This document shows positions 9,024 through 55,348 of a DNA stretch of 64,000 nt, piece by piece. Position numbers and translations under genes: made by a program. The notes under the pieces are model-generated. The model had not been told where the DNA came from, made no database searches, and saw only the letters and a list, made by a program, of their open reading frames with translations. Numbering within the stretch: position 1 is the first letter of the stretch; every line of letters begins with the position of its first letter. The DNA is from Pseudomonadota bacterium (GTDB lineage Bacteria > Pseudomonadota > Gammaproteobacteria > UBA12402). The stretch is taken from assembly GCA_038043025.1 (NCBI GenBank), contig JBBTCW010000006.1:26710-90709 (forward strand), in the 5' to 3' direction.

Positions 9024-9036
9024 TGGGGGTGCGAAA

Positions 9037-10935: not shown

Positions 10936-11059
10936 GATTATTCAGATTATTGTAGCGATTGATATTGCTAATACAAGAAAAATATAGGGCGTTAAGGAGG
11001 GTAAGGGCCGCATTTGTTCATATTTTGAACACGTTATTATTAGTTGTTGCAAATGCTTT

Positions 11060-28286: not shown

Positions 28287-28290
28287 GTCG

Positions 28291-29496: not shown

Positions 29497-29514
29497 GATA
29501 GAGGGTTATATAAA

Positions 29515-31227: not shown

Positions 31228-31269
31228 AAAGTAATTTAGTTTTTAAAAATTTATAATTAGGAGGGAATC

Positions 31270-38733: not shown

Positions 38734-39878
38734 TTCGTTTGTCGAAATCTGTTGTGGGAGACCAGGAAGCGATCGCGCTTTCAAAGGTTGTAGCTCATGG
38801 TTATTTAGGGATGGGAGTAGAGGTTCAATTATTTGAGCAAAAATTGCAAGACTATCTGGATTGTTCGGACAGGAAAGTGGTTTGCGTTAATTCCGGGACT
38901 GCGGCATTACATTTAGCGTTACAAGCGTTGGGGCTGGGGGTGGGGGACGAAGTGTTAGTGCCCGCGATGACTTATATCGCTTCTTTTCAAGCGGTTTCTG
39001 CGACAGGTGCAACACCGGTTGCTTGTGATGTACGTTTAGAGAATGGGTTGTTGGATTTGAAAGATGCTCAGAAACGGTTAAGTCCAAAAACCAAAGCACT
39101 CATGTTTGTTCATTATGCGAGTTATTGTGGCGATCTGCAATCTGTTTATGATTTTGCAAAGCAATATAAATTAAGAGTAGTTGAAGATGCAGCACATGCG
39201 TTTGGCTCAATCTATCAAGGCAAAAAAATTGGTAGCTTTGGCGATGTGGTTTGTTTTAGTTTTGATGGGATTAAAAACATTACCTGCGGGGAGGGGGGTG
39301 CCATTGTAAGCGCGGATAGTGCAGTTATTAATAAAGTATTAGATGCACGATTGTTGGGTGTGCATAGAGAGAAGATTGAAAAACTTTCTTCAATGCAATG
39401 CAGTGGTGATTTTGATGTGATGGAGCAGGGATTTCGATATCACATGAGCAACTTAATGGCAGCGATTGGTATCGTGCAATTGAACCGGTTTGAAAAAGAA
39501 TTTAAACCGGCGAGAAGACAGCTGATAAGCTATTATTATGAGCGATTGAAAAATATCCCGGGGATTCAGTTATTGCAAATGGATTTAGATGATATTGTGC
39601 CACATATTATGCCGATGAGGGTTTTGAATGGTCAGCGTGATCGGTTAGGGATATATTTAAAGCAGCATGCAGTCGAGGTTGGAGTTCATTATAAGGCAGC
39701 TCATTTATTGTCCAAATACGGCCATGGTAGACCCCGGTTACCGGCTGCAGAACAATTGGCTGTCGAATTATTGACCTTGCCATTACATCCAGAGCTGAGC
39801 AAGCGGGATATTGATTATATTGTCGATTTAGTGCAGATTTTGTTGTGTGAAAAATCATGTGTTATGAGTGAAAATTGA
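38730..39878 (+). CDS. DegT/DnrJ/EryC1-family sugar aminotransferase
   Basis: SFDGIKNITCGEGGAIV (PLP lysine), EDAAHAFGS and NSGTAALHLAL. Confidence 0.7.
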   Translation: MIRLSKSVVGDQEAIALSKVVAHGYLGMGVEVQLFEQKLQDYLDCSDRKVVCVNSGTAALHLALQALGLGVGDEVLVPAMTYIASFQAVSATGATPVACDVRLENGLLDLKDAQKRLSPKTKALMFVHYASYCGDLQSVYDFAKQYKLRVVEDAAHAFGSIYQGKKIGSFGDVVCFSFDGIKNITCGEGGAIVSADSAVINKVLDARLLGVHREKIEKLSSMQCSGDFDVMEQGFRYHMSNLMAAIGIVQLNRFEKEFKPARRQLISYYYERLKNIPGIQLLQMDLDDIVPHIMPMRVLNGQRDRLGIYLKQHAVEVGVHYKAAHLLSKYGHGRPRLPAAEQLAVELLTLPLHPELSKRDIDYIVDLVQILLCEKSCVMSEN

Positions 39879-39932: not shown

Positions 39933-40049
39933 ATGTTCAATGGCATCTATCAAAATCGTCGCGTGTTGATTACGGGGCATACTGGCTTTAAAGGTAGTTG
40001 GCTCGCGCAATGGTTATTGGATTTAGGCGCTGAATGGGATAAATCATGA
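39933..40049 (+). pseudogene. Remnant of a second CDP-glucose 4,6-dehydratase gene (38-codon N-terminal fragment, then stop)
   Basis: Translates as MFNGIYQNRRVLITGHTGFKGSWLAQWLLDLGAEWDKS*, closely paralleling the N-terminus of the intact rfbG at 18504 (MFNNVYKNRRVFVTGHTGFKGSWLTQWLLNLGAD). Ends at the start of the next GT2 gene. Confidence 0.7.
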
Positions 40050-40969
40050 AGGCTACACCCTCCGTCAGTGTTGTGATGAATTGTTACAATAGCGATCGCT
40101 ATTTAAAAGAAGCGATTGATTCAGTTTATGCGCAAACTTTTTTGGATTGGGAAATTATCTTTTGGGATAATGCGTCAACAGATCATAGCGCAGAGATCGC
40201 AAAATCTTATGATGATAAGTTACTGTATTTTTTAGGGGATCAACATGTTTCGCTCGGAGCGGCTAGAAATTTAGCGTTGAAGCAATGTCATGGAAAATAT
40301 ATTGCTTTTTTGGACTGCGATGATTTATGGTTGCCAACGAAATTAGAGAAACAAGTTGCGTTGTTAGAGCAAAATCCATCATTAGGAATGGTTTATTCGG
40401 ACTCGTATTTTTTTAATGAACGAGGAAATATTCGATGCTTATACCACGACAAAAAAACGCTTTGTGGAAATGTTTTTAAAGAATTGTTTGCCAATTATTT
40501 TTTGGATATTGAAACAGTTATTATTGTGCGATCAATTTTGGATAAATTGCCAGAGTGGTTTGATCCACGCTTACATGTCATGGAAGACGCTGATTTGTTT
40601 TTGAGAATTGCTTATGATTATCCCATTGACTGTGTGAATGAGCCGCTATCGAGATGGCGCGTGCATAAAAACAGTGATACATTTAGGCGGCATGAATTGT
40701 TTGCTAAGGAAAGCAGTCTGATTTTAGATAAATTAATGGCAGTAGATGAGAATTTTAAAGATCAATTTGGCGAAGAAATAAAATCATATCGTCGACATAT
40801 TATATGGTTAGAGGCCTTATCTCTCATACGAGCAGGTCAGTCAAGGCAGGGTCGTTTGCTATTGAGACCCTATTTGCTTAAGAGTAAGTCTTTTTTTCTT
40901 CTATATTGCTTAAGTTTTCTAGGGCAAAAATTATTCTGTTATTTATGGAATAAACGAGTGGGTTTTTAG
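40046..40969 (+). CDS. Glycosyltransferase family 2
   Basis: VSVVMNCYNSDRYL and FLDCDD (DXD) motifs. Confidence 0.7.
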   Translation: MKATPSVSVVMNCYNSDRYLKEAIDSVYAQTFLDWEIIFWDNASTDHSAEIAKSYDDKLLYFLGDQHVSLGAARNLALKQCHGKYIAFLDCDDLWLPTKLEKQVALLEQNPSLGMVYSDSYFFNERGNIRCLYHDKKTLCGNVFKELFANYFLDIETVIIVRSILDKLPEWFDPRLHVMEDADLFLRIAYDYPIDCVNEPLSRWRVHKNSDTFRRHELFAKESSLILDKLMAVDENFKDQFGEEIKSYRRHIIWLEALSLIRAGQSRQGRLLLRPYLLKSKSFFLLYCLSFLGQKLFCYLWNKRVGF

Positions 40970-41607
40970 AATATATAACCCAGGCCTAAACCTACAAATT
41001 TTACTGATTTAAAGTCATGGTTATTCGTGTAATATTGTGCGCTGATGTCGGTATAGAAATTGGGTGAAACATTCCAGTAAAGTCCTGCGCCTATGGTGGG
41101 GACGTAGGTTCCGCCATTTGATTGGCTATTGAGTAAGGTGTTGTTGATGGTGACAGCAACTTCTTTACGATACATATAGGCGATGCCTGGTTTGATAAAC
41201 AGGCCGAATTTTTTGGGCCATACAGGTAAAGAGACTTTGGCGACGAGATCAACAATTTGTTCTCTAAAGCCCGCATCTGTTTTTGAGTTGTTAATATTAT
41301 TAAACATGATCTTGGGTAGATACAGATAACCTGCTTCGATGGCGAGGTAAGGGTTAACATCATAGCCGGCGCCGAAGCGCGCGCTATATCCGGCACGGTC
41401 TGTGCTGGTGACGGATGTGAAGCCGGCTTTGCTCGTGAGCCAATTATTGGAGTAATTGGTGTATGCATAGCCGAGTTGTGCTACGACATGCCACGTTGGA
41501 TAGTTGGTTTGGTTGTCGTTGATTAAATCGTTTGTGGCAGCCAAAAGGACGCCGCTTGTCGTGGTAAGCAAAATGATTAATGTGACTTTTTTCAATAAAT
41601 AATGCAT
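40966..41607 (-). CDS. Outer-membrane beta-barrel protein (OmpA/Opa-like small porin family)
   Basis: Signal peptide MHYLLKKVTLIILLTTTSGVLLAA. Alternating amphipathic strands. C-terminal aromatic end ...GLGYIF. Confidence 0.55.
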   Translation of the reverse strand: MHYLLKKVTLIILLTTTSGVLLAATNDLINDNQTNYPTWHVVAQLGYAYTNYSNNWLTSKAGFTSVTSTDRAGYSARFGAGYDVNPYLAIEAGYLYLPKIMFNNINNSKTDAGFREQIVDLVAKVSLPVWPKKFGLFIKPGIAYMYRKEVAVTINNTLLNSQSNGGTYVPTIGAGLYWNVSPNFYTDISAQYYTNNHDFKSVKFVGLGLGYIF

Positions 41608-41807: not shown

Positions 41808-42722
41808 ATGTTGATACCTGTCATATTGGCCGGTGGTATAGGCAAGCGTTTATGGCCTTTATCCACGCCGAAACGACCCAAGCAATTTCTGCCGCTGTTG
41901 AGTGACAAAAGCTTATTACAAGAAACGATGGCTCGTATTGCGCATTATCCAGAGATGTCTTTGCCAATGGTGATAGGCAGTTTGTCACATCGCGCTTTGT
42001 TGAACGAGCAATTAATAGGTGCTCAAGCGACTATAATTTTGGAACCATTTGGACGCAATACGGCGCCAGCGATTGCGATTGCTGCTTTAAGAGCGATGGA
42101 AAGTGGGCAAGATCCTATTTTATTTGTATTGCCTTCTGATCATGTGATTCAGAATCCAGATATATTTTATAAAGCGATAGCGATTGCTTGTGCGCACGCA
42201 GAAAAAAATAAATTAGTAACGTTTGGCATTGTGCCTCACGCACCAGAAATAGGTTACGGATATATTGAAGCGGGGGAGCGTTGTGATGATGCCTATGTCA
42301 TTAAACGATTTGTAGAAAAACCCCCGAAACAATTAGCCGAACAATATTTGGCGCAGGGCGGATATTATTGGAACAGTGGGATGTTTGTCTTTCGGGCGTC
42401 ATCGATTTTACAGGCGATTGAAACATATGCGCCAAACATTTACGCGGCTTGTCAGGAGACGTTAAAAAATAGTCGAAAGGATAAGAGGTATATTTATCTC
42501 AATGAAATACAATTTGCGCAATGCCCAAAAGAATCCATCGATTGTGCGGTCATGGAGAAAACAAAGGATGCAGTGGTGGTGCCGTTAGATGCCGGTTGGT
42601 CGGATGTGGGTTCGTGGCATGTGTTATGGTCGTTGATGCGTAAAAATCAACATGGCTACATGAAGCTTGCTACTCTATTTTTGAGAAATATCATGAGTCG
42701 ATTAAAAAAGGATCCTCAATGA
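41808..42722 (+). CDS. Mannose-1-phosphate guanylyltransferase-like nucleotidyltransferase (no C-terminal cupin/PMI domain)
   Basis: N-terminus MLIPVILAGGIGKRLWPLS is classic for ManC/GMP-type enzymes. 304 aa. Confidence 0.65.
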   Translation: MLIPVILAGGIGKRLWPLSTPKRPKQFLPLLSDKSLLQETMARIAHYPEMSLPMVIGSLSHRALLNEQLIGAQATIILEPFGRNTAPAIAIAALRAMESGQDPILFVLPSDHVIQNPDIFYKAIAIACAHAEKNKLVTFGIVPHAPEIGYGYIEAGERCDDAYVIKRFVEKPPKQLAEQYLAQGGYYWNSGMFVFRASSILQAIETYAPNIYAACQETLKNSRKDKRYIYLNEIQFAQCPKESIDCAVMEKTKDAVVVPLDAGWSDVGSWHVLWSLMRKNQHGYMKLATLFLRNIMSRLKKDPQ

Positions 42723-43504
42723 AAACGGTTATTTTATGTGGAGGGCAAGGCACGAGAATTCGCGGAGTTGTGGAGAATATTCCTAAGCCAATGATCCCGG
42801 TGGGTGCTTTCCCCATTCTTTGGCATATCATGAAATACTATGCGTGCTGGCGGCATAAAGAATTTGTGCTGTGTTTAGGATATCAGGCTGATGTAATTAA
42901 GGATTTTTTTCGTAATTACAAAGCACATATGTGTGATTATACTGTTTTTTTAGGGGATTCGAAGCGAGTTGAATATCATGGGAAGCATGATGAAGCGGAT
43001 TGGCAGGTGACGTTGGCAGAAACGGGGTTGAACGCAATGACGGGTGTTCGTATTAAGCGGATTAAAAAATATATCGCGGAGGACGAACATTTTATGCTGA
43101 CCTATGGGGATGGGGTGGGTGATGTTGATTTAGATAAGTTACTCGCGTTTCATTTATCTCACGGAAAAATTTTAACCATGACCGGCGTGCATCCCCCGGG
43201 TCGTTTTGGTGAGTTAATGAGTGACGCCAAGGGATTGGTCACTGAATTTAACGAAAAACCGCAATCCACGGGTGGTTGTATCAATGGCGGTTTCTTTGTC
43301 TGTCGTCGTGAAATATTTGATTATTTAAGTGACGATGAATCTTTAGTGTTTGAGCAAGAACCGATAAAAAAATTAGTCGCTGATCGGCAGATGATGTTGT
43401 ATGAACATGGTGGTTTTTGGCAGCCGATGGATACCTATCGCGAATATTCTTTACTAAATGGATTGTATGATGCGGGTAAAGCGCCTTGGGTCATTTGGAA
43501 ATGA
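42719..43504 (+). CDS. rfbF: Glucose-1-phosphate cytidylyltransferase
   Basis: MKTVILCGGQGTRIRGVVENIPKPMIPVG is diagnostic of RfbF/DdhA. 261 aa. Confidence 0.8.
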   Translation: MKTVILCGGQGTRIRGVVENIPKPMIPVGAFPILWHIMKYYACWRHKEFVLCLGYQADVIKDFFRNYKAHMCDYTVFLGDSKRVEYHGKHDEADWQVTLAETGLNAMTGVRIKRIKKYIAEDEHFMLTYGDGVGDVDLDKLLAFHLSHGKILTMTGVHPPGRFGELMSDAKGLVTEFNEKPQSTGGCINGGFFVCRREIFDYLSDDESLVFEQEPIKKLVADRQMMLYEHGGFWQPMDTYREYSLLNGLYDAGKAPWVIWK

Positions 43505-44492: not shown

Positions 44493-46253
44493 ATGATAGA
44501 TGATATTTCAGTATCCATTGTTATTCCGACCTATAATCAAGCGCAATATTTGAAAATATGCCTTCAGTCGGTTCTTGAGCAAACGCGAACAGATTGGGAA
44601 GTGATTATCATTAATAATTTTTCGAATGATAATACCGTTGAGATTGTGCAGGCGATGCGGGATGAGCGCTTTACCCTGATTAATTTTGATAATAAAGGGA
44701 TTATCGGTGCGGCTAGAAATGAAGGAGTGCGTCACGCGCGCGCACCGTTAATTGCTTTTTTGGATTCGGATGATGGGTGGGAAAAAAATAAATTAGAGGT
44801 TATTTTAAATTATTTTAACGAACACACTGATGTTGATTTGGTTTGTCACGATGAATGGTTATATGTCGGGAATAAAAAAACAAAGATTTTAAAATACGGC
44901 GCACACTCCGATTATAGGAACTTGTTATTTAAAGGCAATGCTTTATCGACGTCGGCGGTGACGCTTAAAAAAAATAGTTTTTGGCGTGTGAATGGTTTTT
45001 CGGAAGAGTCGTGTTTGGCGGGCGTAGAAGACTATGATTTGTGGCTTCGCTTAGCGCGGAAGGGTTGTAAGATGGCTTTTGTGCGGGATGTTTTAGGATA
45101 TTATAGAACGCACGATGATAGCTTTTCGGCGAAAATTGAAAAACATTGTGCGCATCTCACCTATTTGTTTGATCAGCATTTTAGAGATTGGCAACCGAAA
45201 AACTTATATTATCGTTTTTTGATGAGAGGCTGTTACGCCAATGCCAATAGGATATGCGGAAAAATGCTCATGAAGGGAAAAGGGCAGCGACATAATGCTA
45301 GAAAATATTTGCGCCGTGCGCTTGGATATAATCCGTTGTCATGGAAAGCGTGGGTTCATATGTGCATGTGTTTAGGAGGGTTAATAGGGGAAGCGCTGAT
45401 GCGATTTCGTCATTTACTCGCCTATTCATTGCCTTTTTTGTTGGGGCTTAAGCGGTGCCAGTCAATGGTTAATCCGTTGATGAATAACTCTTTAAGCATT
45501 TTGCTTTATCACGATATTCCAAATCATTTGTTTGATTCTTTCAGGGCGCAAATGCAATTTTTGCAAAAACATTATCAATTTATTACACCGAACGAATTTG
45601 AGCAAATGGCACGAGGAGACAAAATGATCGTCGGGCATCAACTGCTATTAAGCTTTGATGATGGCTTTAAGTCAAATTTTTATGTGGCGAAAGAAATTTT
45701 AACCCCGCTTAACATTAAAGCGCTATTTTTTATATCGCCGGGCTTTGTGGATTGTACTGATCGTGCAACGCAAATAGCTTTTATGCAAAATAGACTACGG
45801 CTTCAGGCGATGGATATTTCGAACAATATGGCACCGATGAACTGGGAGGATTTACACTGGCTTATTCGATCGGGTCATACGATTGGTTCGCATACCCTGA
45901 CGCACGCGTGTTTGTCGAAAATGATATCGCCGGAAGAGTTATTTTCTGAGGTGGTGCAAAGCAAAAAAATACTGGAAGCGCGACTGCAGCAATCGATTAC
46001 GCATTTTGCGTATCCACGGGGGGATATTGATAGCATTGATTCTGCCGCATTATCTTTGGCATTAAAGCATTATCGATATGTTTATTCCGGTGTTCGAGGG
46101 AGCTGTTGTGTGCGATCTCGCGTGTTTTATCGCGAATGTATGGATCTTGGTTCGGGGGTCCATTATGCGCGTTTTTTAATAGAGGGCGGCTTGAGGTTTC
46201 ATTATAAGCGTGCGCGGAAAAAGTTAGATTCGATGGCGGAAAAATCATGTTGA
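44493..46253 (+). CDS. Bifunctional GT2 glycosyltransferase / polysaccharide deacetylase (NodB-homology) protein
   Basis: N-terminus VSIVIPTYNQAQYL...LDSDD (GT2). C-terminal half LLLSFDDGFKSNF...HTLTH (NodB deacetylase motifs). Confidence 0.6.
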   Translation: MIDDISVSIVIPTYNQAQYLKICLQSVLEQTRTDWEVIIINNFSNDNTVEIVQAMRDERFTLINFDNKGIIGAARNEGVRHARAPLIAFLDSDDGWEKNKLEVILNYFNEHTDVDLVCHDEWLYVGNKKTKILKYGAHSDYRNLLFKGNALSTSAVTLKKNSFWRVNGFSEESCLAGVEDYDLWLRLARKGCKMAFVRDVLGYYRTHDDSFSAKIEKHCAHLTYLFDQHFRDWQPKNLYYRFLMRGCYANANRICGKMLMKGKGQRHNARKYLRRALGYNPLSWKAWVHMCMCLGGLIGEALMRFRHLLAYSLPFLLGLKRCQSMVNPLMNNSLSILLYHDIPNHLFDSFRAQMQFLQKHYQFITPNEFEQMARGDKMIVGHQLLLSFDDGFKSNFYVAKEILTPLNIKALFFISPGFVDCTDRATQIAFMQNRLRLQAMDISNNMAPMNWEDLHWLIRSGHTIGSHTLTHACLSKMISPEELFSEVVQSKKILEARLQQSITHFAYPRGDIDSIDSAALSLALKHYRYVYSGVRGSCCVRSRVFYRECMDLGSGVHYARFLIEGGLRFHYKRARKKLDSMAEKSC

Positions 46254-48325
46254 CGCAGGCGCCGCTGCCAAAATTAAAACATTTACTGTTAGCTGTTTTT
46301 AAAAGCGCGCCATCCGATGATCAGTTATCGGCATGTTGGCAAACGCCGGGAGGAAAATCTTTTTGGTTATCACGCTCGAGTTGGGCATTAAAAGCGATTG
46401 TGCTTTGGTGGGAGAAGACGTTTGATCGAGCACCGATTATTTGGTTTCCAGATTATTTTTGTAATGAAGCATTAAGTTTAGTGCGTACCACATCCGCGAC
46501 GATCAAGTTTTATTCTGTCGATAAAAATTTAATGCCCAAATGGGATGTATGTCATGCCTTAGCGAAAACGGCAAAGCCCGATATTTTTGTGTTAGTGCAT
46601 TATTTTGGACAACCATCGGATCTTGTTGGCGCCAAACAATTTTGCGAAGCATATCAATCGTTAATCATTGAGGATGCAGCGCATGTACTTTGTCCAACGG
46701 CTGACATTGGAAGTGTGGGGCATTTTACGCTTTATAGCCCACATAAATTGTTAGCGGTTCCGCATGGTTCGATTTGCGTGATGTCTCCGAAAAAAATTAA
46801 GCGATTATATCCAAGTCCGAGCAACTCGGCAGGGATAATGACTAACGTGATAGAAGGTTTTGGTCATCATGCGCCGGCTGTTTTTCCGTGGATTTTAAAA
46901 CGATTGATTCAGAAAGTTGTCCCTTCATTTTTTATCTATCGTAAAACGCCGGTACAAACATCCGTACAGTGTTGTTCGACCTTGCCTGCCCTGCATCCAT
47001 TTATTAAAAAATTATTGTATATTGAGTTACGAGAAATGAGTGCCGTTGAAAAATGGCGCCGTGAAAATCGGCAATTTTATGATATGTTGATAAATCTTGA
47101 AGGGAATGGTTCTTTAATAGGGGATGACAAACATATTCCGTATTTGGCTGTTTTTACGGGTATTGAGCAGCATGGTTTTAACAAGGCGTTAACATACTTG
47201 ATGCAAAAATGGCCTGATTTGCCGCCAGAAGTGGTACATGAGCCATTGTTACACGCGGATGCGATACAATTTTATTCATCGATGATTGCTTTTCCGGTGC
47301 ATCAGTCATTAACATTATCTCATTATTTTAAGCACTATCTTAAAAAGAATATAAAGTCTAAGTTAAAACGTATTTTACCCCTGTATTCGCTGAGACAGGA
47401 TCATCCGGACGAGTATAAAAAACTGTTTCATCATGTTCCCTATTCTAATTTGTTGCAATCATCGTTGTATGGTGAAGCGAAGCATCATGCAGAAGCGTGG
47501 GACGTGAGTCATTTGATTATATTGAAAAATAAAATGCCATTGGCTATTTGTCAGTTATTGCAAAAAAAGCTGTTTGGTTTTTTTTGCTTGTATCGTATTA
47601 ATCGAGGACCTGTTTGGCTGTCATCAAGCGTGGGGTATTTTGATAAAATAGCCTGTTTATCTTTATTGAAAAAAAGATTTTCTGGTATCTTCAGTAGAAA
47701 AATTTTAAGTATTGCGCCGGAGTTATCTGAGAACATTGATCATTATTATTTATTGTCGCTTTTAGGCTATCATCACGTGAAGAAACAACCCTATTCTTCA
47801 GCGATGATAGATTTATCTCAATCGGAAGATTTTTTGCGTAAACAATTGTCGGGGAAATGGCGAAATCAACTTTGTTCCGCAGAAAAATTAGATATATTGA
47901 TTGAGATTGAATCGGGGATTGATGCCTTAATGTGGCTATTAAAAAAATATCATGAGTTTAAAAAAAGCAAAGATTTTTCGGGCGTTTCAGAAAAGCTTAT
48001 TCATTATATGGCTCAACAATCTTTTGATCCAGAGTGTTTTGTGACATTGCGCGCAAGCTATCAAGATGAATATGTTGCGGGCATCTTGGTGTATCGACAT
48101 GGACAAACGGCAACGTATTTTATTGGCTGGAATGGTGAAGTGGGTCGAAAAATTTATAGTAATAACTTATTATTATGGCGCGCCATATTGGAGTTAAAAT
48201 CTATCCATTGTTCTTATTTTGATTTAGGCGGCATTGATGCGAAAAATACGCAGGCGATTAGCCATTTTAAACAAGGCGTTAGAGGCAAGGATTACTCGTT
48301 GTTAGGGGAGTTCGTTTGTTTATGA
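46247..48325 (+). CDS. Fusion: DegT-like PLP-fold domain (N-terminal) + FemAB/GNAT-type acyltransferase domain (C-terminal)
   Basis: N-terminal half has IIEDAAHVLCP and YSPHKLLAVPHGS, matching DegT-fold positions. C-terminal YFIGWNGEVGRKIYSNNLLLWRAILELK is typical of the FemAB/Acetyltransf_6 family. Confidence 0.45.
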   Translation: MLTQAPLPKLKHLLLAVFKSAPSDDQLSACWQTPGGKSFWLSRSSWALKAIVLWWEKTFDRAPIIWFPDYFCNEALSLVRTTSATIKFYSVDKNLMPKWDVCHALAKTAKPDIFVLVHYFGQPSDLVGAKQFCEAYQSLIIEDAAHVLCPTADIGSVGHFTLYSPHKLLAVPHGSICVMSPKKIKRLYPSPSNSAGIMTNVIEGFGHHAPAVFPWILKRLIQKVVPSFFIYRKTPVQTSVQCCSTLPALHPFIKKLLYIELREMSAVEKWRRENRQFYDMLINLEGNGSLIGDDKHIPYLAVFTGIEQHGFNKALTYLMQKWPDLPPEVVHEPLLHADAIQFYSSMIAFPVHQSLTLSHYFKHYLKKNIKSKLKRILPLYSLRQDHPDEYKKLFHHVPYSNLLQSSLYGEAKHHAEAWDVSHLIILKNKMPLAICQLLQKKLFGFFCLYRINRGPVWLSSSVGYFDKIACLSLLKKRFSGIFSRKILSIAPELSENIDHYYLLSLLGYHHVKKQPYSSAMIDLSQSEDFLRKQLSGKWRNQLCSAEKLDILIEIESGIDALMWLLKKYHEFKKSKDFSGVSEKLIHYMAQQSFDPECFVTLRASYQDEYVAGILVYRHGQTATYFIGWNGEVGRKIYSNNLLLWRAILELKSIHCSYFDLGGIDAKNTQAISHFKQGVRGKDYSLLGEFVCL

Positions 48326-49452
48326 GATTAGGTATTGATGCATCCAATATTCGCAGTGGTGGTGGGGTTGTGCATCTTGTTGAGCTTTTAAATAATTTAG
48401 ATCCTCATTCCTATGGTATAAATAACGTTATCGTTTGGGGAGGAGAGACTTTGTTATCTCAGTTGCCCAAAAAAGATTGGTTGCAGTTGCAGTTCGTACC
48501 GATATTAAATCGACATGTTTTGTATCGCAGTTTATGGCAGCGATTTAGCTTGCCCAAGCTGGCAGAGCAACAGTGCGATATCTTATTTGTGCCAGGCGGC
48601 ATTTGTTATGCGCGACGATTGCCTTACGTTGTTCTATGTCAAAATATGCTGCCGTTTTTATGGAAAGAAATTTTTAGTTATGTAAGATATTTTCGGTTTT
48701 TTCGGTTGTTGTTATTGCGATATGCGCAGATACGATCTTTTAAAAAAGCCAGCGGCGTTATTTTTTTAACGGATTATAGTTTGGAGATTGTACGAAAAAA
48801 AACGCATATTACAATGAATAAATCTTGTGTCATTCCTCATGGAATCAATCCAGATTTTTATGTTGAACCCCGGCATCAAAAACCGATTAAACATTATAAT
48901 GCTGAAAATCCGTTCGAATTATTATATGTTTCAACGATTGATTTTTATAAACAGCAGGATCAGGTGGTGAAGGCCGTTGTTAAATTAAGGAAATGTGGGT
49001 ATCCGGTGATATTGCGTTTAGTGGGTGCCGCATATCCGCCCGCGTTGAGGCGTTTGCAGAAGTTATTAAATAAAGTTGATCCACAGCATAAAACAGTGAT
49101 ATATGAGGAGGGAGGGCAATATCCCCATATCCGAGATTTTTATCGCAGAGCGGATTTATTTATTTTTGCGTCTCGTTGCGAAGCTTTTGGTAATACATTG
49201 TTGGAAGCGGCCGCATCGGGGTTACCGATTGTTTGTTTGAAAGGGCAGCCTATGCAAGAACTCTTGCAGAATGCGTGCGAATACTTTACAGTTGCCGATG
49301 CGGATGAGATTTGCTGTGCGATTAAAAAGTTACTCGACGATGAATCGTTGCGTTTTCAATATGCTCAAAAAGCATATCAACGGGCAAAAAACTATTCTTG
49401 GAATAAAACGGCAGAAAAAACGGGCAGATTTATTAACGCGAGTTTTGGATAG
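48316..49452 (+). CDS. Glycosyltransferase family 4
   Basis: RCEAFGNTLLEAAASGLPIVC EX7E-type motif. Confidence 0.65.
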   Translation: MFMRLGIDASNIRSGGGVVHLVELLNNLDPHSYGINNVIVWGGETLLSQLPKKDWLQLQFVPILNRHVLYRSLWQRFSLPKLAEQQCDILFVPGGICYARRLPYVVLCQNMLPFLWKEIFSYVRYFRFFRLLLLRYAQIRSFKKASGVIFLTDYSLEIVRKKTHITMNKSCVIPHGINPDFYVEPRHQKPIKHYNAENPFELLYVSTIDFYKQQDQVVKAVVKLRKCGYPVILRLVGAAYPPALRRLQKLLNKVDPQHKTVIYEEGGQYPHIRDFYRRADLFIFASRCEAFGNTLLEAAASGLPIVCLKGQPMQELLQNACEYFTVADADEICCAIKKLLDDESLRFQYAQKAYQRAKNYSWNKTAEKTGRFINASFG

Positions 49453-49531
49453 GCGAAAGTCGCTATTAATTGCCTGATTAAAGGTGGCTTTGCCTGGTGA
49501 ATTATCCCAAATAGATAGAGGCAGAAAGATA

Positions 49532-50950
49532 ATGAAACTAACAGAAATCGAAACTCTGGCAAAAAAAGGCGAGTCTGATGCTTTAGAATTTAAAAAATCT
49601 ACTGCGCAGCTGAAAAGTGCGGGTGAAACACTGTGTGCATTTTTGAATAATCATGGCGGGATAATTTTCATTGGCGTTAATGATCATGGTGCAATCATTG
49701 GGCAACAAGTAACAGAGCATACAAAACGAGAAATCGGTAGCATTTTAGCTAAAGTAGCTCCAGAACATAATGTCGATGTTCTATATGTTGATATTAATAA
49801 AACTAAACAGGTCATCGTGTTGCGAGCAACGCCTCACATAGATTTACAGCCATATACATTTGATAGCAAAGCGTATGTTCGCGTTGAATCAAGCACCTAT
49901 CCTATGTCTCGAGATCAATATCAAAGAATGAGTTTAAACTATATGCAACAGCACCGTAGCTGGGAGAATGGGATTATAAAAGATGCTTCAATAGAGGATT
50001 TAGATGCTGAAGAAATTATGAGGACAATAACTGAAGGAATCGCTAATAAAAGAATACCTGCTGATCAAGCGGCCAGCAGTCCTGAAAGGGTGTTAAAACG
50101 ACTTGGGCTGCTCAAGAATAACCAGATAACCAATGCGGCCATTGTATTATTTGCCAAAGAGCCAACCCAGCGGCTTCATCAATGCTCTATTCGTTTAGCC
50201 CGATTTAGAGGGTTAGATAAATCAGAATTTGTGGATAGCAAGGTAGTAGATGGCAATGCTTTTACTTTAATTAATGCTGCCATGTCTTTTGCTGATTTAT
50301 ACTTGCCCGTCAGCAGTAAGTTTGGCTCAGGAAAAATCGAAAGAATTGATGAGCCATTATTTCCGATAGATGCGTTAAGAGAGGTGTTTGCTAATGCGGT
50401 TGGCCATAGAGACTATGCTATGCATACCGCGACGCTCAGTTTTGCGATTTATGAAAATCGACTTGAAATTTGGTCGCCGGGTTTACCGCCCGATGGGGTG
50501 ACTTTCGAGAATATTAAAACCCTGCACGAATCCATACCCAGAAACCGACTGATCACAAAAGTACTTTATTATCGCAAACTTTTTGAGTCATGGGGAAGGG
50601 GAATTCAAAAAATTATAACCCTATGCACGGAAGCCGGCCATCCAGAGCCGGAATTTGTTGAAAGAACCGGTGGGGTATGTGTAATTTTAAAGTCAAAACA
50701 ATCGATAGGCGCGCCAATAATATATGATAAGCAAACAGAAGAAAGAATTAAATTAACTGATAGACAAAAAGAAATTTTATCTATTATTAAGGAAAAGCGT
50801 CAAGCGACATTGCCAGAAATAATTCAAGCTTTAACAGATAAAGCAGCCAAACGCACAGTGCAACGCGAATTAGCTAGACTTAAAGATTTTGGTCTGATTT
50901 CATTGAGGGGAGGAACAAAGGGATCTGTATGGGAAATAATTGCGCCATAA
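49532..50950 (+). CDS. AlbA_2 (Schlafen-like) DNA-binding domain + HATPase_c_4 + C-terminal wHTH protein (putative regulator/ATPase)
   Basis: N-terminus KKGESDALEFKKS...AFLNNHGGIIFIGVNDHG is typical of AlbA_2 'divergent AAA' proteins. C-terminal HTH-like segment. Start at MKLTEIE (RBS GAAAGA). Confidence 0.5.
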   Translation: MKLTEIETLAKKGESDALEFKKSTAQLKSAGETLCAFLNNHGGIIFIGVNDHGAIIGQQVTEHTKREIGSILAKVAPEHNVDVLYVDINKTKQVIVLRATPHIDLQPYTFDSKAYVRVESSTYPMSRDQYQRMSLNYMQQHRSWENGIIKDASIEDLDAEEIMRTITEGIANKRIPADQAASSPERVLKRLGLLKNNQITNAAIVLFAKEPTQRLHQCSIRLARFRGLDKSEFVDSKVVDGNAFTLINAAMSFADLYLPVSSKFGSGKIERIDEPLFPIDALREVFANAVGHRDYAMHTATLSFAIYENRLEIWSPGLPPDGVTFENIKTLHESIPRNRLITKVLYYRKLFESWGRGIQKIITLCTEAGHPEPEFVERTGGVCVILKSKQSIGAPIIYDKQTEERIKLTDRQKEILSIIKEKRQATLPEIIQALTDKAAKRTVQRELARLKDFGLISLRGGTKGSVWEIIAP

Positions 50951-51020: not shown

Positions 51021-51068
51021 TCAAGGGCGATGGGGAATCAATTAAGGAAACAAAATATTGAGATCATT

Positions 51069-52199
51069 ATGATGAAATTATTAGTTATATTTGGCACGCG
51101 ACCTGAAGCGATTAAACTGGCGCCTGTTATCCATGCGGCTCGTCTCGATGCGCGTTTTGATGTGCAAGTTTGCGTGACGGGTCAACATCGCGAGATGTTG
51201 GATCAGATGTTAGCATTATTTGACATCAAACCCGATTATGATCTCGATATTATGTTGAGTAATCAGCATGTCTTGGATATGACGAGTCGTATTTTATCGG
51301 GGTTGAAGTCAGTTTTGTTTCGCGCACAACCTGATTATATTATTGTGCAAGGTGACACGACCAGTGCGTTTATGGGTGCATTGGCCGGATTTTATTTCAA
51401 AATTCCTGTGGGACATGTGGAAGCAGGATTGCGTACGCACGATTTATATTCGCCTTTTCCGGAAGAAGCGAATCGAACATTGATCACACGATTAGCGCAT
51501 CATCATTTTGCGCCGACTAAAAAAGCGTATGATAACTTGGTGCGAGAAAATATTGCGGTGGATTGTATTACCGTGACAGGAAATACGGTCATTGATGCAT
51601 TGTTATGGGTTTGTAAAAAAAATAAATTAAAAACGGATTGGAGTGATGTTTTTGGCTCAATTTATAAAGTGCTGCAGCCGAAAAAACCCATTATTCTGGT
51701 GACCGGGCATCGTCGAGAGAGTTTTGGACAAGGGTTTTTAAATATTTGTAAAGCATTGGCAACGATTGCTGAAAATCATCCTGATTGGCATATCATTTAT
51801 CCGGTACATTTAAATCCACATGTGCAAGAGCCCGTGCGGGGAATGCTTGATAAATATGATAATGTTCATTTACTTGCGCCATTGGAATATGCGCCTTTTG
51901 TTTATTTGATGCAGCAAGCGCATTTAATTTTGACCGATTCTGGTGGGATACAAGAAGAAGCACCGGCATTAGGCAAGCCGGTGTTGGTGATGCGTGATGT
52001 GACAGAGCGACCCGAAGCCATTGAAGCAGGCACAGCCATTTTGGTGGGAACCGATGCGGCGCGCATTATTGCTGAAGTAGAGGATTTAATGCATAATGCA
52101 GCGCGATATGAAGCAATGGCGCGAATCAATAATCCCTTTGGTGATGGGTGTTCAGCGCGGCGTATTTTAGATAAAATTTTGGAAACATCAGATGAATAA
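51069..52199 (+). CDS. UDP-N-acetylglucosamine 2-epimerase (non-hydrolysing), WecB-like
   Basis: MMKLLVIFGTRPEAIKLAPVI N-terminus is characteristic of WecB/MnaA. Confidence 0.7.
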   Translation: MMKLLVIFGTRPEAIKLAPVIHAARLDARFDVQVCVTGQHREMLDQMLALFDIKPDYDLDIMLSNQHVLDMTSRILSGLKSVLFRAQPDYIIVQGDTTSAFMGALAGFYFKIPVGHVEAGLRTHDLYSPFPEEANRTLITRLAHHHFAPTKKAYDNLVRENIAVDCITVTGNTVIDALLWVCKKNKLKTDWSDVFGSIYKVLQPKKPIILVTGHRRESFGQGFLNICKALATIAENHPDWHIIYPVHLNPHVQEPVRGMLDKYDNVHLLAPLEYAPFVYLMQQAHLILTDSGGIQEEAPALGKPVLVMRDVTERPEAIEAGTAILVGTDAARIIAEVEDLMHNAARYEAMARINNPFGDGCSARRILDKILETSDE

Positions 52200-53439
52200 T
52201 TTTCAGATTAACAAAATTGCAGTGATGGGCTTGGGTTATATCGGATTGCCGACAGCGACCTTGTTTGCAAACCAAGGCATTCCAGTGCTGGGCGTTGATA
52301 TTAACAAGACTATTGTCGATACCGTTAATCAAGGCAAAATTCATATTGTTGAGCCTGATTTAGATAGAATGGTTGAGGCGGTGATTCGAGCAGGTCGGCT
52401 TCGAGCTACAACAGAATGTGAGCCGGCAGATGTTTTTATTATTGCTGTGCCCACGCCATTTAAAGGTGATCATAAGCCTGATCTGTCTTACATTGAATCG
52501 GCCGCAACGATGTTGGCGCCAAAATTAGTCAAGGGAAATTTGGTGATTTTAGAATCTACGTCGCCGGTTGGAACATCCGAGCAGTTGGCGCGTTGGTTAT
52601 CTCAAGATCGTTCGGACCTTTCGTTTCCATTATCATCCGATGATCCGGATATTAATATTTGTTATTGTCCCGAGCGCGTGATTCCGGGAAAAGTGTTGCA
52701 TGAATTAACAATGAATGATCGTATTTTGGGAGGCATGACGCCACGGTGTGCGCAAAAAGCAAAACAAGTCTATGAGCTGTTTGTCAAAGGAGAGTGTTTG
52801 ACGACGGATGCCAAGACAGCAGAATTAGCGAAGCTGACAGAAAATTCTTATCGTGATGTCAACATTGCTTTTGCGAATGAAATGTCATTGGTTTGCGATC
52901 GTTTAGGCGTGGATATATGGGAGTTGATTCGATTAGCGAATCATCATCCGCGTGTGAATATATTGCAACCGGGTGCTGGCGTGGGTGGACATTGTATTGC
53001 GGTGGATCCTTGGTTTATTGTGGATAGCGCGAAGAACATTACGCCGTTGATACAAGCCGCAAGACAAGTCAATAATTTTAAGCCGCAGTATATTCTAAAA
53101 CAGATTGAAAAATTATTAATGCAGCATCCCCATTCGATAGTGGCTTGCTTGGGGTTGTCATACAAACCCGACATTGACGATTTAAGAGAAAGTCCAGCGA
53201 TCAAGATAGTTAACGCATTATCAAAACAAACAGCGATTAAAGAATTATTGGTCGTTGAACCGCATGTTACTGCGTTGCCAGCTTCATTAAAGGGCAAAAT
53301 AGAATTAACCGATGGTCGATCCGCTATTGAACGTGCAAATATTATTGTTGTTTTGGTGCCGCATACGGCATTTAATCAAATCGATCAGACGACATTAAAA
53401 GACAAGCTTCTTATTAATCCAACCCCTCTTTGGCGATAA
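52192..53439 (+). CDS. UDP-N-acetyl-D-mannosamine (UDP-sugar) 6-dehydrogenase, WecC/UDP-glucose dehydrogenase family
   Basis: IAVMGLGYIGLPTATLFANQG Rossmann N-terminus. Catalytic-Cys region GGHCIAVDP. Confidence 0.7.
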   Translation: MNNFQINKIAVMGLGYIGLPTATLFANQGIPVLGVDINKTIVDTVNQGKIHIVEPDLDRMVEAVIRAGRLRATTECEPADVFIIAVPTPFKGDHKPDLSYIESAATMLAPKLVKGNLVILESTSPVGTSEQLARWLSQDRSDLSFPLSSDDPDINICYCPERVIPGKVLHELTMNDRILGGMTPRCAQKAKQVYELFVKGECLTTDAKTAELAKLTENSYRDVNIAFANEMSLVCDRLGVDIWELIRLANHHPRVNILQPGAGVGGHCIAVDPWFIVDSAKNITPLIQAARQVNNFKPQYILKQIEKLLMQHPHSIVACLGLSYKPDIDDLRESPAIKIVNALSKQTAIKELLVVEPHVTALPASLKGKIELTDGRSAIERANIIVVLVPHTAFNQIDQTTLKDKLLINPTPLWR

Positions 53440-53440
53440 T

Positions 53441-55348
53441 ATGTGTGGTATTGCCGGTTTTTCCGGGCATTTCTCACAAGCATTACTGGTTAGCATGATC
53501 GAAACCATTTCGTATCGTGGCCCCGATCACCAGGCTGTCTATTATAATGCATCTTCACAAATTGGATTGGCGCATCGCCGATTATCGATTATTGATGTCT
53601 CCGCAAAGGGCAATCAACCCATGTGGGATGCCAGCCATACCGTTTGTATTGTGTTTAATGGTGAAATCTATAATTTTCAAAAATTGCGCAAAGAATTGGT
53701 CGAAGAAGGGTTTAAATTTAACAATGACACGGATACGGAAGTTATATTAAATTTATATTTACGCGACGGCATTGAATTATTCAAAAAATTAAATGGTATT
53801 TTTGCATTTGCAATTTATGATACGCGAAACCAACAGATTTTGTTGGCGCGCGATCATTTCGGCGTTAAGCCGTTGTATTATGCACAAACTAACGCAGGTT
53901 TTTTATTTGCGAGTGAATTAAAATGTTTGTTAAAAGAATCATCCGTGTCGCGCGAATTAAATCCCATGGCGATTCATAATCATCTACGCTATCTCTGGTC
54001 GCCTTCGCCGGATACGATGTTAAAATCCATCAAAAAATTATTGCCAGGACATGCCTGCTTGATTAAAGCAGGCACCATGCAAAAACAATGGTGCTATTAT
54101 GATTTGCCGTATGATCAGCCGATTAAACCGTATTCGGTAAATGAAGCCGTATCATTATTGCAGACTAAATTAAAACAAGCGGTCGAGCGACAATTGATTT
54201 CGGATGTGCCCGTCGGGGCGTTTTTATCAGGCGGGCTAGATTCAAGCGCCATTGTTGCGATGGTAAAAGAGATTGATCCCGCACGAAAATTGCCTTGTTT
54301 TACGATGCGATTTGCCGATCAGTTTGGTCGCTCTGAAGGAACGGTTGAAGATTTGCCCTACGCCGAAAAAGTGGCAAAGTATTTAAATGTTCCGCTGCAC
54401 GTAATCGATGTTCACGCTGATATGATCGATCAATTGCCGATGATGATTGAGCATTTAGATGAGCCGCAAGCGGATCCTGCCGCACTCAATACATTTTTTA
54501 TTGCGAAATTAGCACGCGATCAGGGAATGAAAGTTTTATTATCGGGCGCGGGCGGCGACGATATTTTTTCAGGGTATCGACGTCATTATGCGCTCATGCA
54601 AGAGCGATACTGGGCATGGTGGCCAAAAGGTATTCGTCGGCAGTTTAGGGTATTGACACAAAAATTTCCCGAAAATAAATTGCGTCGATTTAAAAAAGCA
54701 TTCGCATACGCGGATGTTGATCGCACACAGCGCATCGCCAGTTATTTTTATTGGTTGCAACCTGATATTCAATGTGGTTTGTATAGCAATGATTTGAGTC
54801 GGCAATTAATTTCAGCAGAACAAGACGATGCTCTACTGAATACGTTATGTCAGTTGCCAAAAGAGATGCCCGACTTGAATAAAATGTTATATTTAGAAAC
54901 AAAATATTTTTTAGCGGATCACAATTTAAATTATACTGACAAAATGAGCATGGCGGCGAGTGTTGAGACACGTGTGCCGTTTTTAGATTTGGATTTGGTT
55001 GAATATGCCGCATCATTGCCGATTGCCTTTAAGCAAAACGGGAACGTGGGCAAATGGATATTAAAAAAAGCGATGAAAAACTATTTGCCACAGGATGTTA
55101 TTTATCGCAAAAAAACAGGCTTTGGGGTGCCATTGCGCTTTTGGTTAAAAAATAATTTGCGAGCCATGGTAGTTGATTTGTTGTCCGAGCAGTCGATTAA
55201 TCAGCGGGGGTTGTTTAATGCAGGGGCTGTTAAAAAATTGATAGCCGACAATCAAACCGGAAAAATTGACGCAACCTATCCGATTTTTTCTTTGTTATGT
55301 ATTGAATTGTGGTGTCGCCGTTTTCTTCAATTCTCAGCCCAGAGGTAA
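53441..55348 (+). CDS. Asparagine synthase (glutamine-hydrolysing)-family amidotransferase (WbpS-like)
   Basis: MCGIAGFSG N-terminal nucleophile. SGGLDSS PP-loop. 635 aa. Confidence 0.7.
   Translation: MCGIAGFSGHFSQALLVSMIETISYRGPDHQAVYYNASSQIGLAHRRLSIIDVSAKGNQPMWDASHTVCIVFNGEIYNFQKLRKELVEEGFKFNNDTDTEVILNLYLRDGIELFKKLNGIFAFAIYDTRNQQILLARDHFGVKPLYYAQTNAGFLFASELKCLLKESSVSRELNPMAIHNHLRYLWSPSPDTMLKSIKKLLPGHACLIKAGTMQKQWCYYDLPYDQPIKPYSVNEAVSLLQTKLKQAVERQLISDVPVGAFLSGGLDSSAIVAMVKEIDPARKLPCFTMRFADQFGRSEGTVEDLPYAEKVAKYLNVPLHVIDVHADMIDQLPMMIEHLDEPQADPAALNTFFIAKLARDQGMKVLLSGAGGDDIFSGYRRHYALMQERYWAWWPKGIRRQFRVLTQKFPENKLRRFKKAFAYADVDRTQRIASYFYWLQPDIQCGLYSNDLSRQLISAEQDDALLNTLCQLPKEMPDLNKMLYLETKYFLADHNLNYTDKMSMAASVETRVPFLDLDLVEYAASLPIAFKQNGNVGKWILKKAMKNYLPQDVIYRKKTGFGVPLRFWLKNNLRAMVVDLLSEQSINQRGLFNAGAVKKLIADNQTGKIDATYPIFSLLCIELWCRRFLQFSAQR

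Follow-up and report, generated by a model that had tools for sequence, protein, structure and literature searches.

A DegT-like and FemX-like fusion protein in a three-enzyme cassette with a polysaccharide deacetylase: a candidate tailoring system for cell-surface glycans

Introduction

What does a protein that joins an aminotransferase-like domain to a FemX-like transferase domain do in a polysaccharide locus, and with which enzymes does it work? The question is raised by a 692-residue fusion protein encoded in a stretch of 64,000 nucleotides from a gammaproteobacterium of the GTDB lineage UBA12402 (GenBank assembly GCA_038043025.1, contig JBBTCW010000006.1, positions 26,710 to 90,709 of the forward strand). 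This stretch, herein called the window, is numbered from its first letter, and the whole of it is a single large glycan locus with nearly all genes on the plus strand. In a preliminary description made from the letters of the window, the protein was presented as a DegT-fold domain followed by a FemAB-type domain. The architecture given there is right, but the partner enzyme, a polysaccharide deacetylase of carbohydrate esterase family 4 (CE4) that is coupled to the family in 56 of 80 related loci, was only touched on and not accounted for in the interpretation.

Amino-acid and unusual N-acyl substituents on the sugars of O-antigens and capsules shape serotype, charge and immune recognition, and for most of these substituents we know of no enzyme that installs them. 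Herein, the N-terminal part of the fusion protein is placed in a distinct, uncharacterised DegT-like clade (326 protein clusters at E ≤ 1e-30) that is dedicated to a three-enzyme glycan-tailoring cassette of CE4, DegT-like and FemX-like enzymes. Each of the two domains of the fusion belongs to a known superfamily, and the architecture can be seen in databases under generic or misleading names; literature searches returned no paper on this DegT-like and FemX-like fusion family.

Architecture and catalytic residues of the fusion protein

The open reading frame (ORF) lies exactly where it had been placed and begins with ATG, a start that is backed by the aligned N-termini of 32 homologues, in which Met1 is nearly invariant and Pro6 invariant. 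The start overlaps the stop codon of the upstream gene as ATGTTGA (TCATGTTGA), and the stop overlaps the probable ATG start of the downstream gene for a family 4 glycosyltransferase (GT4) (TTATGAGA); because of these overlaps on both sides, the fusion gene and its neighbours look translationally coupled. The closest related locus (L004), from a groundwater gammaproteobacterial metagenome-assembled genome (MAG), is fully colinear with the window and carries an orthologue that is 84% identical to the fusion. Between the two, the ratio of nonsynonymous to synonymous substitution rates (dN/dS) is 0.21 for the N-terminal half and 0.18 for the C-terminal half. Both halves are under purifying selection, and these ratios, together with the orthologue in a colinear locus, argue against a chance ORF. 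The product has no transmembrane segment (maximum KD19 1.25) and an isoelectric point (pI) of about 9, both domains being basic with a family median pI of about 9.35; it is a soluble, basic, cytoplasmic protein. A 196-residue fragment in a metagenome-derived library (P0121) is 99% identical to its N-terminus, and therefore the source organism or a near-identical strain has been sampled elsewhere, only as a fragment.

Pfam, PDB profile searches and AlphaFold2 with Foldseek agree on a DegT-fold domain joined to a FemAB-type domain. An AlphaFold2 model of the fusion, computed with an alignment of 33 family members (A1), has a pLDDT of 89.7 and a pTM of 0.81; in it the N-terminal domain closes with a long helix and the C-terminal domain begins at about residue 380, which supplies the domain boundary that the preliminary description had asked for. 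That description had also named a lack of DegT/AAT-fold similarity on a proper profile search as the result that would speak against it, and both the profile and the structure searches instead return the DegT family. The Pfam family DegT_DnrJ_EryC1 (PF01041) matches with 23.7 bits (cut-off 19.8) over residues 113–179 only, corresponding to profile positions 115–186 of 360. Among NCBIfam profiles, the best match is PseC (E 1.9e-8, 33.6 bits versus a cut-off of 423.5), followed by lower and partial matches to WecE, LegC, ArnB and RfbH; by these profiles the N-terminal domain is not a member of the PseC, WecE, LegC, ArnB or RfbH equivalogs. Searched against the PDB, the N-terminal half of A1 finds PglE (1o61, E 1.6e-10) and other sugar aminotransferases, and Lys167 pairs with PglE Lys184, the residue replaced in the K184A mutant structure 4ztc. 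An hhalign comparison of A1 with one of the canonical DegT proteins of the window (38730–39878) gave a probability of 94.9% over residues 66–167, with EDAAH aligned on EDAAH (within VEDAAHAF of the canonical protein) and VHY on VHY. In the same comparison, the family-specific P68-D-Y-F-C-N motif sits opposite VPAMTYIAS, and a W-x-P-D-Y-F-C-N loop thus stands at the position of the canonical loop that stacks on pyridoxal 5'-phosphate (PLP). Foldseek searches of the PDB with the modelled domain returned PseC, ArnB, L136, WlaRG, perosamine synthase and others, which places it structurally among sugar and cyclitol aminotransferases, not among alpha-amino-acid transaminases. The N-terminal domain is accordingly modelled as a fold-type I PLP fold nearest to solved DegT-family structures.

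The motifs IIEDAAHV (residues 140–147) and YSPHK (residues 163–167), to which attention had been drawn at the outset, are present and contain invariant family columns. In a comparison of 71 N-terminal domains (36 fused, 35 from separate genes), every sequence has Lys167, the putative PLP-binding lysine whose conservation the preliminary description had proposed to check, as well as Asp143, Glu142, His146, His118, Phe120, Gly121, Pro68, Trp215, Tyr299, Trp322, Pro323 and Glu328. Cys72 is found in 70 of the 71, Ser164 in all 36 fused and 31 of the 35 stand-alone forms, and Ser42/Ser44 are mostly conserved. Nearby CDP-glucose genes and conserved cysteines had prompted the idea of a dehydrase of the E1/RfbH type, with pyridoxamine 5'-phosphate (PMP) and a [2Fe-2S] cluster. 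This was rejected, given that the Schiff-base lysine is present where E1 and ColD have histidine; furthermore, Cys72 is the sole invariant candidate cysteine, Cys102 and Cys133 varying in stand-alone forms.

The C-terminal domain has a double-GNAT fold and is homologous to FemX over its whole length. Pfam assigns FemAB (PF02388) to residues 596–690 (39 bits) and Acetyltransf_6 to residues 545–665 (30.9 bits), a profile of the domain matches FemX structures in the PDB at E values of 3e-22 to 3e-27, and the C-terminal half of A1 matches both FemX and FemA. With Foldseek, the closest structures are the aminoacyl-tRNA-dependent peptide synthases Sbb17 and Sba18 (TMt 0.76–0.77) and Weissella FemX (TMt 0.75), together with S. 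aureus FemX, FemA and MprF/A-PGS. The domain is not a member of the XrtA/PEP-CTERM-associated FemAB family TIGR03019 (12.2 bits, E 0.07, cut-off 260). Phe674, Lys675 and Gly677 are invariant in 16 diverse C-terminal domains, fused or stand-alone, and the first two also throughout A1. In the HMMER alignment to the Weissella enzyme (FemX_Wv), Lys675 falls on Lys305 and Phe674 on Phe304, while Lys412, nearly invariant in the family, falls on Lys36 and the invariant Trp418 on Trp39. Lys305 is the catalytic residue of FemX_Wv, and alanine mutants of the tRNA-dependent DhpH-C, whose corresponding dyad is Phe328–Lys329, showed that Lys329 is essential and that Phe328 contributes to activity (PMC12945691). 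In addition, Lys36 and Trp39 are among the residues of FemX_Wv that bind UDP-MurNAc-pentapeptide (PMC8280954). The invariance of the Phe-Lys dyad and the nearest matches in structure would both speak more for aminoacyl-tRNA than for acyl-CoA as the donor.

A conserved cassette in polysaccharide loci

To follow the fusion beyond the window, 80 related loci were taken from a scan of GTDB, ORFs were called in all of them and the proteins of the window were searched against them with phmmer; companions were counted in the 55 loci that extend at least 3 kb on both sides. All 80 loci, like the window, are polysaccharide or lipopolysaccharide (LPS) loci, of O-antigen or exopolysaccharide (EPS) type. 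The DegT-like and FemX-like parts lie within 3 kb of each other in 50 of the 55 (27 fused), and in 40 of the 55 a CE4 gene is also found within 3 kb. Across the full set, a CE4 gene within 3 kb of either part occurs in 56 loci, 45 of them with a gap of at most 50 nt, and the FDD and HxxxH metal-binding and catalytic motifs are invariant in all 54 partner CE4 enzymes compared. The trio is kept through at least four gene orders or strand arrangements, and this seemingly obligate linkage to CE4 is the strongest signal that the comparison of loci gives. Most commonly, CE4 precedes the fusion, as in Leptospira and Prochlorococcus; elsewhere CE4, DegT-like and FemX-like enzymes are encoded by separate genes in that order (L027, L030, L052, L071, L077, L078), the DegT-like gene faces a convergent FemX-like–CE4 pair (many Rhodospirillales), or the order is AsnB-like, FemX-like, CE4 and DegT-like (L057, L059, L068). 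The catalytic residues of all three enzymes are intact, and a firm genetic linkage holds the trio together within the cytoplasmic stages of polysaccharide assembly. In the lineage of the window, four catalytic domains are compressed into two polypeptides, a family 2 glycosyltransferase (GT2) fused to CE4 and the DegT-like domain fused to the FemX-like one.

The further companions within the 55 loci are GT2 (39 loci), an AsnB-like amidotransferase (24) and Epimerase_2 (21), both within 10 kb, glucose-1-phosphate cytidylyltransferase (18), a 332-residue short-chain dehydrogenase/reductase (SDR; 13) and a well conserved GT4 (13). Genes for keto-sugar-forming enzymes recur nearby as well: those like CDP-glucose 4,6-dehydratase occur in 24 of the 80 loci and FnlA-like ones in 19. 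Loci of the Magnetospirillum type carry two or three AsnB-like copies, and in a group of them (L037, L038, L041, L042, L047, L053) the DegT-like and FemX-like parts are encoded side by side by two genes, directly behind two or three AsnB-like genes and a GT2, with no CE4 within 3 kb. Five loci (L056, L062, L067, L069, L082) have a DegT-like gene with neither a FemX-like gene nor CE4 within 3 kb; in L067 it has the gene for a Wzy_C protein on one side and sugar-nucleotide genes on the other. A soluble protein of about 630 residues, matching no Pfam family, is encoded just upstream of the block of CDP-sugar, GT2, CE4 and fusion genes in 16 of the 80 loci (Leptospira, Eremiobacterota and others; for example L002, 2213–4105, and L084, 4274–6169), and the window holds no homologue of it.

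The family is large and dispersed. A search of 5.8 billion proteins returned 384 relatives, nearly all of about 700 residues and covered over their full length, the best being only 42% identical. With the N-terminal domain alone, phmmer against 1.84 billion representatives found, in addition to the clusters at E ≤ 1e-30 given above, 774 clusters at E ≤ 1e-10 and 2133 at E ≤ 1e-3. Among the best 150 matches, 71 have the length of the fusion, 72 are stand-alone (330–450 residues) and 7 are fragments; the two parts are fused in about half of the family. Hosts in the GTDB scan include Leptospira, Legionella/Berkiella, Thiomargarita, Methylobacter, Acidovorax/Polaromonas, Magnetospirillum and other Rhodospirillales, and further Nitrospirota magnetotactic bacteria, Bacteroidota, Planctomycetota including anammox bacteria, Prochlorococcus, Syntrophomonas wolfei and one archaeal MAG. 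Database names for the relatives are "lipid II:glycine glycyltransferase FemX", "DegT family aminotransferase", "FemAB domain protein", "putative glycosyltransferase" and hypothetical protein; several hundred protein clusters probably carry a misleading automatic name such as the first of these or "peptidoglycan bridge formation...".

In the rfb locus of Leptospira interrogans serovar Lai, a CE4 gene is followed immediately by the gene for the orthologue AAN48838.2; the second gene downstream of the latter encodes a 429-residue protein and, from its position, would be LA1641. The current annotation of LA1641 is wzy, the gene for the O-antigen polymerase; in Leptospira, LPS is the main protective antigen, and its biosynthesis is poorly understood (PMC13111663).

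Proposed function and alternatives

On this basis, the fusion may be a bifunctional enzyme of the cytoplasm that tailors a cell-surface glycan, as part of a cassette that remodels the nitrogen substituents of an amino sugar; in our estimate this reading, with the order of steps set out here, stands evenly balanced between right and wrong. In the scheme that we infer, from reaction types and donor to step order and the kind of sugar, the DegT-like domain, with PLP/PMP on Lys167, would first aminate a nucleotide-activated sugar at a keto group. The FemX-like domain would then cap the new amine with an amino acid from aminoacyl-tRNA by means of the Phe674–Lys675 dyad, while Lys412 and Trp418 would hold the phosphate-bearing acceptor as their counterparts do in FemX_Wv. 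These two steps would follow the logic of DhpH and resemble the successive reactions of PglE and PglD, except that the group put on would be aminoacyl and not acetyl. In a third step the adjacent GT2 would transfer a sugar to a lipid-linked repeat unit of O-antigen or LPS, and in a fourth the CE4 domain fused to GT2 would take off an N-acetyl group. In this order each enzyme would work at the level usual for its family. The order is favoured because of the structural family of the N-terminal domain and its stand-alone occurrences; since it stands in five loci with no FemX-like or CE4 gene nearby, an autonomous reaction on a sugar can be argued. The earlier proposal of a single polypeptide that aminates a sugar and afterwards N-acylates or aminoacylates it is likewise plausible in the light of DhpH, where a PLP domain is joined to a tRNA-dependent FemX-like domain.

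DhpH, from the dehydrophos pathway, is the one characterised precedent of a fusion of PLP and FemX-like domains, with the PLP domain N-terminal, a Leu-tRNA-dependent FemX-like domain C-terminal and the Phe-Lys dyad shared. Its PLP domain forms the amine to which the FemX-like domain attaches the amino acid. It belongs to a secondary-metabolite cluster and acts on a phosphonate amino-acid analogue, and the two PLP domains are probably of different subfamilies. DhpH-N is reportedly a PLP domain, a finding said to go back to Bougioukou and colleagues in 2013. The aminotransferases PglE, PseC and WecE act ahead of the N-acetyltransferases PglD, PseH and WecD, which are of LbH or GNAT type and depend on acetyl-CoA, whereas in the present family the transferase partner is FemX-like and covalently fused, and the PDYFCN loop is specific to the family. 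BioF2-like proteins carry an Acetyltransf_6 GNAT domain fused to a PLP domain of the 8-amino-7-oxononanoate synthase type. They share with the fusion the combination of a fold-type I PLP enzyme with an Acetyltransf_6/Fem-like domain, but with the order reversed, an alpha-oxoamine synthase in place of a DegT-type enzyme and a different context.

Aminoacylation of an amino sugar from tRNA has a precedent of its own. Orf11 of the BD-12 pathway, Sba18 and Sbb17 (PDB 9wqw–9wqy) carry out Gly-tRNA-dependent aminoacylation of the amino sugar of streptothrisamine (PMC12945691); they are stand-alone enzymes of about 310 residues from an actinomycete antibiotic cluster, lack a PLP domain and have a substrate other than a cell-surface glycan.

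Several points weigh against the proposed scheme. The four canonical DegT genes of the window score 210–302 bits over their full length on PF01041, versus 23.7 bits over 67 residues for the fusion, whose N-terminal domain is therefore a very diverged DegT branch. The spacing between the serine and the lysine is 3 (YS-P-H-K, Ser164 to Lys167) and not 5 as in canonical DegT enzymes (S-x4-K), which appears in the HMMER alignment as a 2-residue gap relative to YSYNGNK of PglE, and for this reason the chemistry of the domain could differ. In the C-terminal domain, the equivalents of the FemX_Wv acceptor residues Thr209 and Arg211 are not conserved. No 4,6-dehydratase adjoins the cassette in the window, and CE4 is its most tightly linked partner. 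Because loci of the holdfast (HfsH/HfsK) and XrtA types pair CE4 with a FemAB-like protein and have no DegT-like partner, CE4, not the PLP domain, may supply the acceptor amine.

The last points lead to a scheme with the steps reordered, which we hold to be improbable. Here, GT2 would add an N-acetylhexosamine (HexNAc) to the lipid-linked unit, CE4 would unmask the amine at C2 and the FemX-like domain would aminoacylate it, after which the PLP domain would transaminate the alpha-amine of the attached residue to an alpha-keto-acyl group, reducible by an SDR, or act elsewhere on the same residue. The close spacing of CE4, the fusion of GT2 and CE4 in the window, the SDR conserved beside GT2 and the UDP-HexNAc pathways of WecB or FnlABC type that lie nearby in many loci all agree with it. 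So do the known pairs: in the Caulobacter holdfast system, where acylation of the amines exposed by HfsH has been proposed, HfsH and HfsK work with no PLP enzyme (PMC5362036), and a deacetylase is paired with a FemAB-related protein in XrtA/PEP-CTERM loci (PMC3684757), where TIGR03006, TIGR03019 and TIGR03108 form a trio. Like the cassette, these systems combine CE4 with a Fem-like protein, often with an AsnB-like one, in polysaccharide loci; such pairs have been noted in EPS loci with a proposed sequence of unmasking and re-acylation. Against the reordered scheme stand the grouping of the N-terminal domain with sugar and cyclitol rather than alpha-amino-acid aminotransferases, the stand-alone DegT-like genes, and the lack of known precedent for a DegT-type enzyme acting on an N-aminoacyl sugar.

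A second alternative, slightly less likely again in our view, concerns the donor: the C-terminal domain could be an N-acyltransferase of the Acetyltransf_6/HfsK/CelD type that depends on acyl-CoA or an acyl carrier and not on tRNA, and the sugar amine would then receive an ordinary acyl substituent, for instance acetyl or hydroxyacyl. The common occurrence of N-hydroxyacyl amino sugars in O-antigens counts for this possibility. So does the Acetyltransf_6 match, which is to a GNAT family, and GNAT folds are versatile in their choice of donor (PMC5362036). It is opposed by the invariance of the Phe-Lys dyad, whose lysine is essential in DhpH-C and catalytic in FemX_Wv (PMC12945691), and weakly by the basic character of the C-terminal domain, with a median pI of 9.4.

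That the protein is a peptidoglycan interpeptide-bridge enzyme, a lipid II:glycine glycyltransferase FemX as the database names would have it, is very improbable even though the homology to FemX is real. FemX, FemA and FemB (Weissella FemX 1ne9/4ii9, S. aureus FemX 6snr, FemA 1lrz) are aminoacyl-tRNA-dependent enzymes of peptidoglycan synthesis encoded in cell-wall loci, whereas the fusion has a PLP domain attached, for which bridge synthesis offers no role, lacks the stem-contact residues equivalent to Thr209 and Arg211, and presumably acts on a sugar amine. Every locus examined is of the polysaccharide or LPS kind, with GT2, CE4, GT4, NDP-sugar and AsnB-like genes, and the hosts of the cassette are mainly diderm bacteria, with directly cross-linked peptidoglycan. 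Just as hard to credit is a DegT-like domain that serves as a catalytically dead scaffold or substrate-binding module, which the very weak, partial similarity to canonical DegT and the altered Ser-Lys spacing might suggest, given that the predicted PLP contacts Lys167, Asp143 and His146 are invariant in 71 sequences from many phyla, that dN/dS is low in the N-terminal half and that about half of the family are stand-alone genes.

Neighbouring genes and the rest of the window

The features of the fusion gene and its neighbours are collected in Table 1. The upstream gene is the GT2–deacetylase fusion that had been reported, with Pfam matches to Glycos_transf_2 (113.8 bits) and Polysacc_deac_1 (52.4 bits); its CE4 domain has the FDD (Asp389, Asp390) and HxxxH (His467, His471) motifs. 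This CE4 domain matches NCBIfam HfsH at E 8e-7 and the XrtA/PEP-CTERM deacetylase TIGR03006 only weakly (E 1.3e-3), and is not a member of the latter equivalog. A logic like that of ArnC/ArnD, in which GT2 loads a sugar on undecaprenyl phosphate and deacylation takes place on the lipid, was considered and set aside, as the GT2 has no C-terminal transmembrane helices (maximum KD19 1.23) and best matches GT2 enzymes of the WcaA/TuaG/EpsE type, ArnC only at E 5e-4. The cytidylyltransferase and SDR pair often directly precedes GT2, CE4 and fusion, as in Leptospira, Prochlorococcus and Bacteroidota loci; the SDR was considered as a CDP-glucose 4,6-dehydratase or CDP-tyvelose 2-epimerase and has only generic SDR matches. 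ORF calling had placed the start of GT4 at TTG 48316, and orthologues of this enzyme are found at E values of 1e-87 to 1e-104 in distant cassette loci.

Table 1. Positions of the fusion gene, its domains and key codons, and neighbouring genes in the window.
Feature	Coordinates	Strand	Remarks
Glucose-1-phosphate cytidylyltransferase	42719..43504	+	TIGR02623, 305.4 bits (cut-off 300.25)
SDR epimerase/reductase, 332 aa	43486..44484	+	Generic; best PDB match 66 bits
GT2 (aa 1–~300) and CE4 polysaccharide de-N-acetylase (aa ~331–586) fusion	44493..46253	+	Upstream partner gene
Fusion gene, 692 aa	46247..48325	+	End coordinate takes in the stop codon
N-terminal DegT-like PLP domain, aa 1–379	46247..47383	+	Last helix, aa 357–379, is the linker
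Motif P68-D-Y-F-C72-N73	46448..46465	+	Replaces the canonical DegT PLP-stacking loop
Asp143–His146 codons, EDAAH motif	46673..46684	+	Asp143: predicted partner of the PLP pyridine nitrogen
Lys167 codon, YSPHK motif	46745..46747	+	Predicted PLP Schiff-base lysine
C-terminal FemX-like double-GNAT transferase domain, aa 380–692	47384..48322	+	
Lys412–Trp418 codons	47480..47500	+	Lys412 and Trp418: equivalents of FemX_Wv acceptor-binding residues
Phe674 and Lys675 codons	48266..48271	+	Equivalents of FemX_Wv Phe304 and catalytic Lys305
GT4 glycosyltransferase	48322..49452	+	Pfam; downstream of the fusion; likely start ATG 48322 (ATGA stop/start overlap)
UDP-GlcNAc 2-epimerase	51030..52199	+	Pfam; frequent cassette companion
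UDP-ManNAc-type dehydrogenase	52192..53439	+	Pfam; frequent cassette companion
AsnB-like amidotransferase	53441..55348	+	Best match TIGR03108 (XrtA/PEP-CTERM amidotransferase), 509 bits, below the cut-off of 817

Two genes near the cassette have the look of lineage-specific insertions in comparison with L004. Between GT4 and the UDP-GlcNAc 2-epimerase, a plus-strand gene (49484–50950) encodes a 488-residue protein with SLFN/AlbA_2 and HATPase_c_4 domains and a C-terminal winged helix, and it looks like an operon insertion because the GT4 and epimerase genes abut in L004 (12070–13212 and 13209–14378). A minus-strand gene (40966–41607) for a 213-residue OmpA-like beta-barrel stands between a GT2 gene (40046–40969) and a ManC-like gene (41808), and since L004 has only about 166 nt there, it would be a second insertion.

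Beyond the cassette, the window holds the four canonical DegT genes, several radical-SAM genes, B12-binding ones among them, a thiamine diphosphate (TPP) enzyme and GtrA/GT2 pairs. A pathway for a nonulosonic acid like legionaminic acid occupies 5634–14689 on the plus strand, with genes for a 4,6-dehydratase, DegT, Epimerase_2, NeuB, a CBS plus NTP-transferase protein, a GFO/IDH/MocA oxidoreductase, a CMP-transferase (CTP_transf_3) and an SDR, and suggests an LPS like that of Legionellales. Six radical-SAM genes, three with B12-binding domains, lie on the plus strand (1099–2229, 26104–27216, 28258–32820, 55455–56921); with a C-methyltransferase gene at 24911–26047, they suggest several C-methylated or otherwise unusual sugars. 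The plus-strand set at 34247–39878, comprising a TPP-dependent enzyme (602 residues), an SDR, a NUDIX protein and two tandem DegT genes (435 and 382 residues), resembles a pathway for a branched-chain or dideoxy sugar. A 509-residue NeuB-like and cupin fusion (23202–24731) is among the few minus-strand genes of the locus. Four long ORFs may encode membrane proteins like Wzx, Wzy or GtrC: those at 4421–5719, 14711–15898 and 20196–21884 on the plus strand (432, 395 and 562 residues) have no Pfam match at E ≤ 1e-5, and that at 58006–59811 on the minus strand (601 residues) has none at E ≤ 1e-4.

Implications

A broader possibility, which we put forward tentatively and rate as more doubtful than probable, is that the cassette represents a widespread unrecognised pathway in which diderm bacteria use aminoacyl-tRNA to put amino acids on the amino sugars of O-antigen or EPS. 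Its hosts would include pathogenic Leptospira, relatives of Legionella, Magnetospirillum and Prochlorococcus, and the diverged PLP domain would have one of two tasks, to generate the amine that serves as acceptor or to turn the amino acid, once attached, into an N-acyl group that is non-proteinogenic. If so, cell-envelope polysaccharides would have their first example of a glycan aminoacylation system that depends on tRNA, and the origin of some N-aminoacyl or unusual N-acyl amino sugars of O-antigens could be explained. With aminoacyl-tRNA as the donor, the system would furthermore form a new link between translation and the synthesis of envelope glycans. The cassette offers a concrete and widely distributed candidate route by which envelope glycans, among them those of Leptospira, could be N-acylated from tRNA or in some other unusual way.

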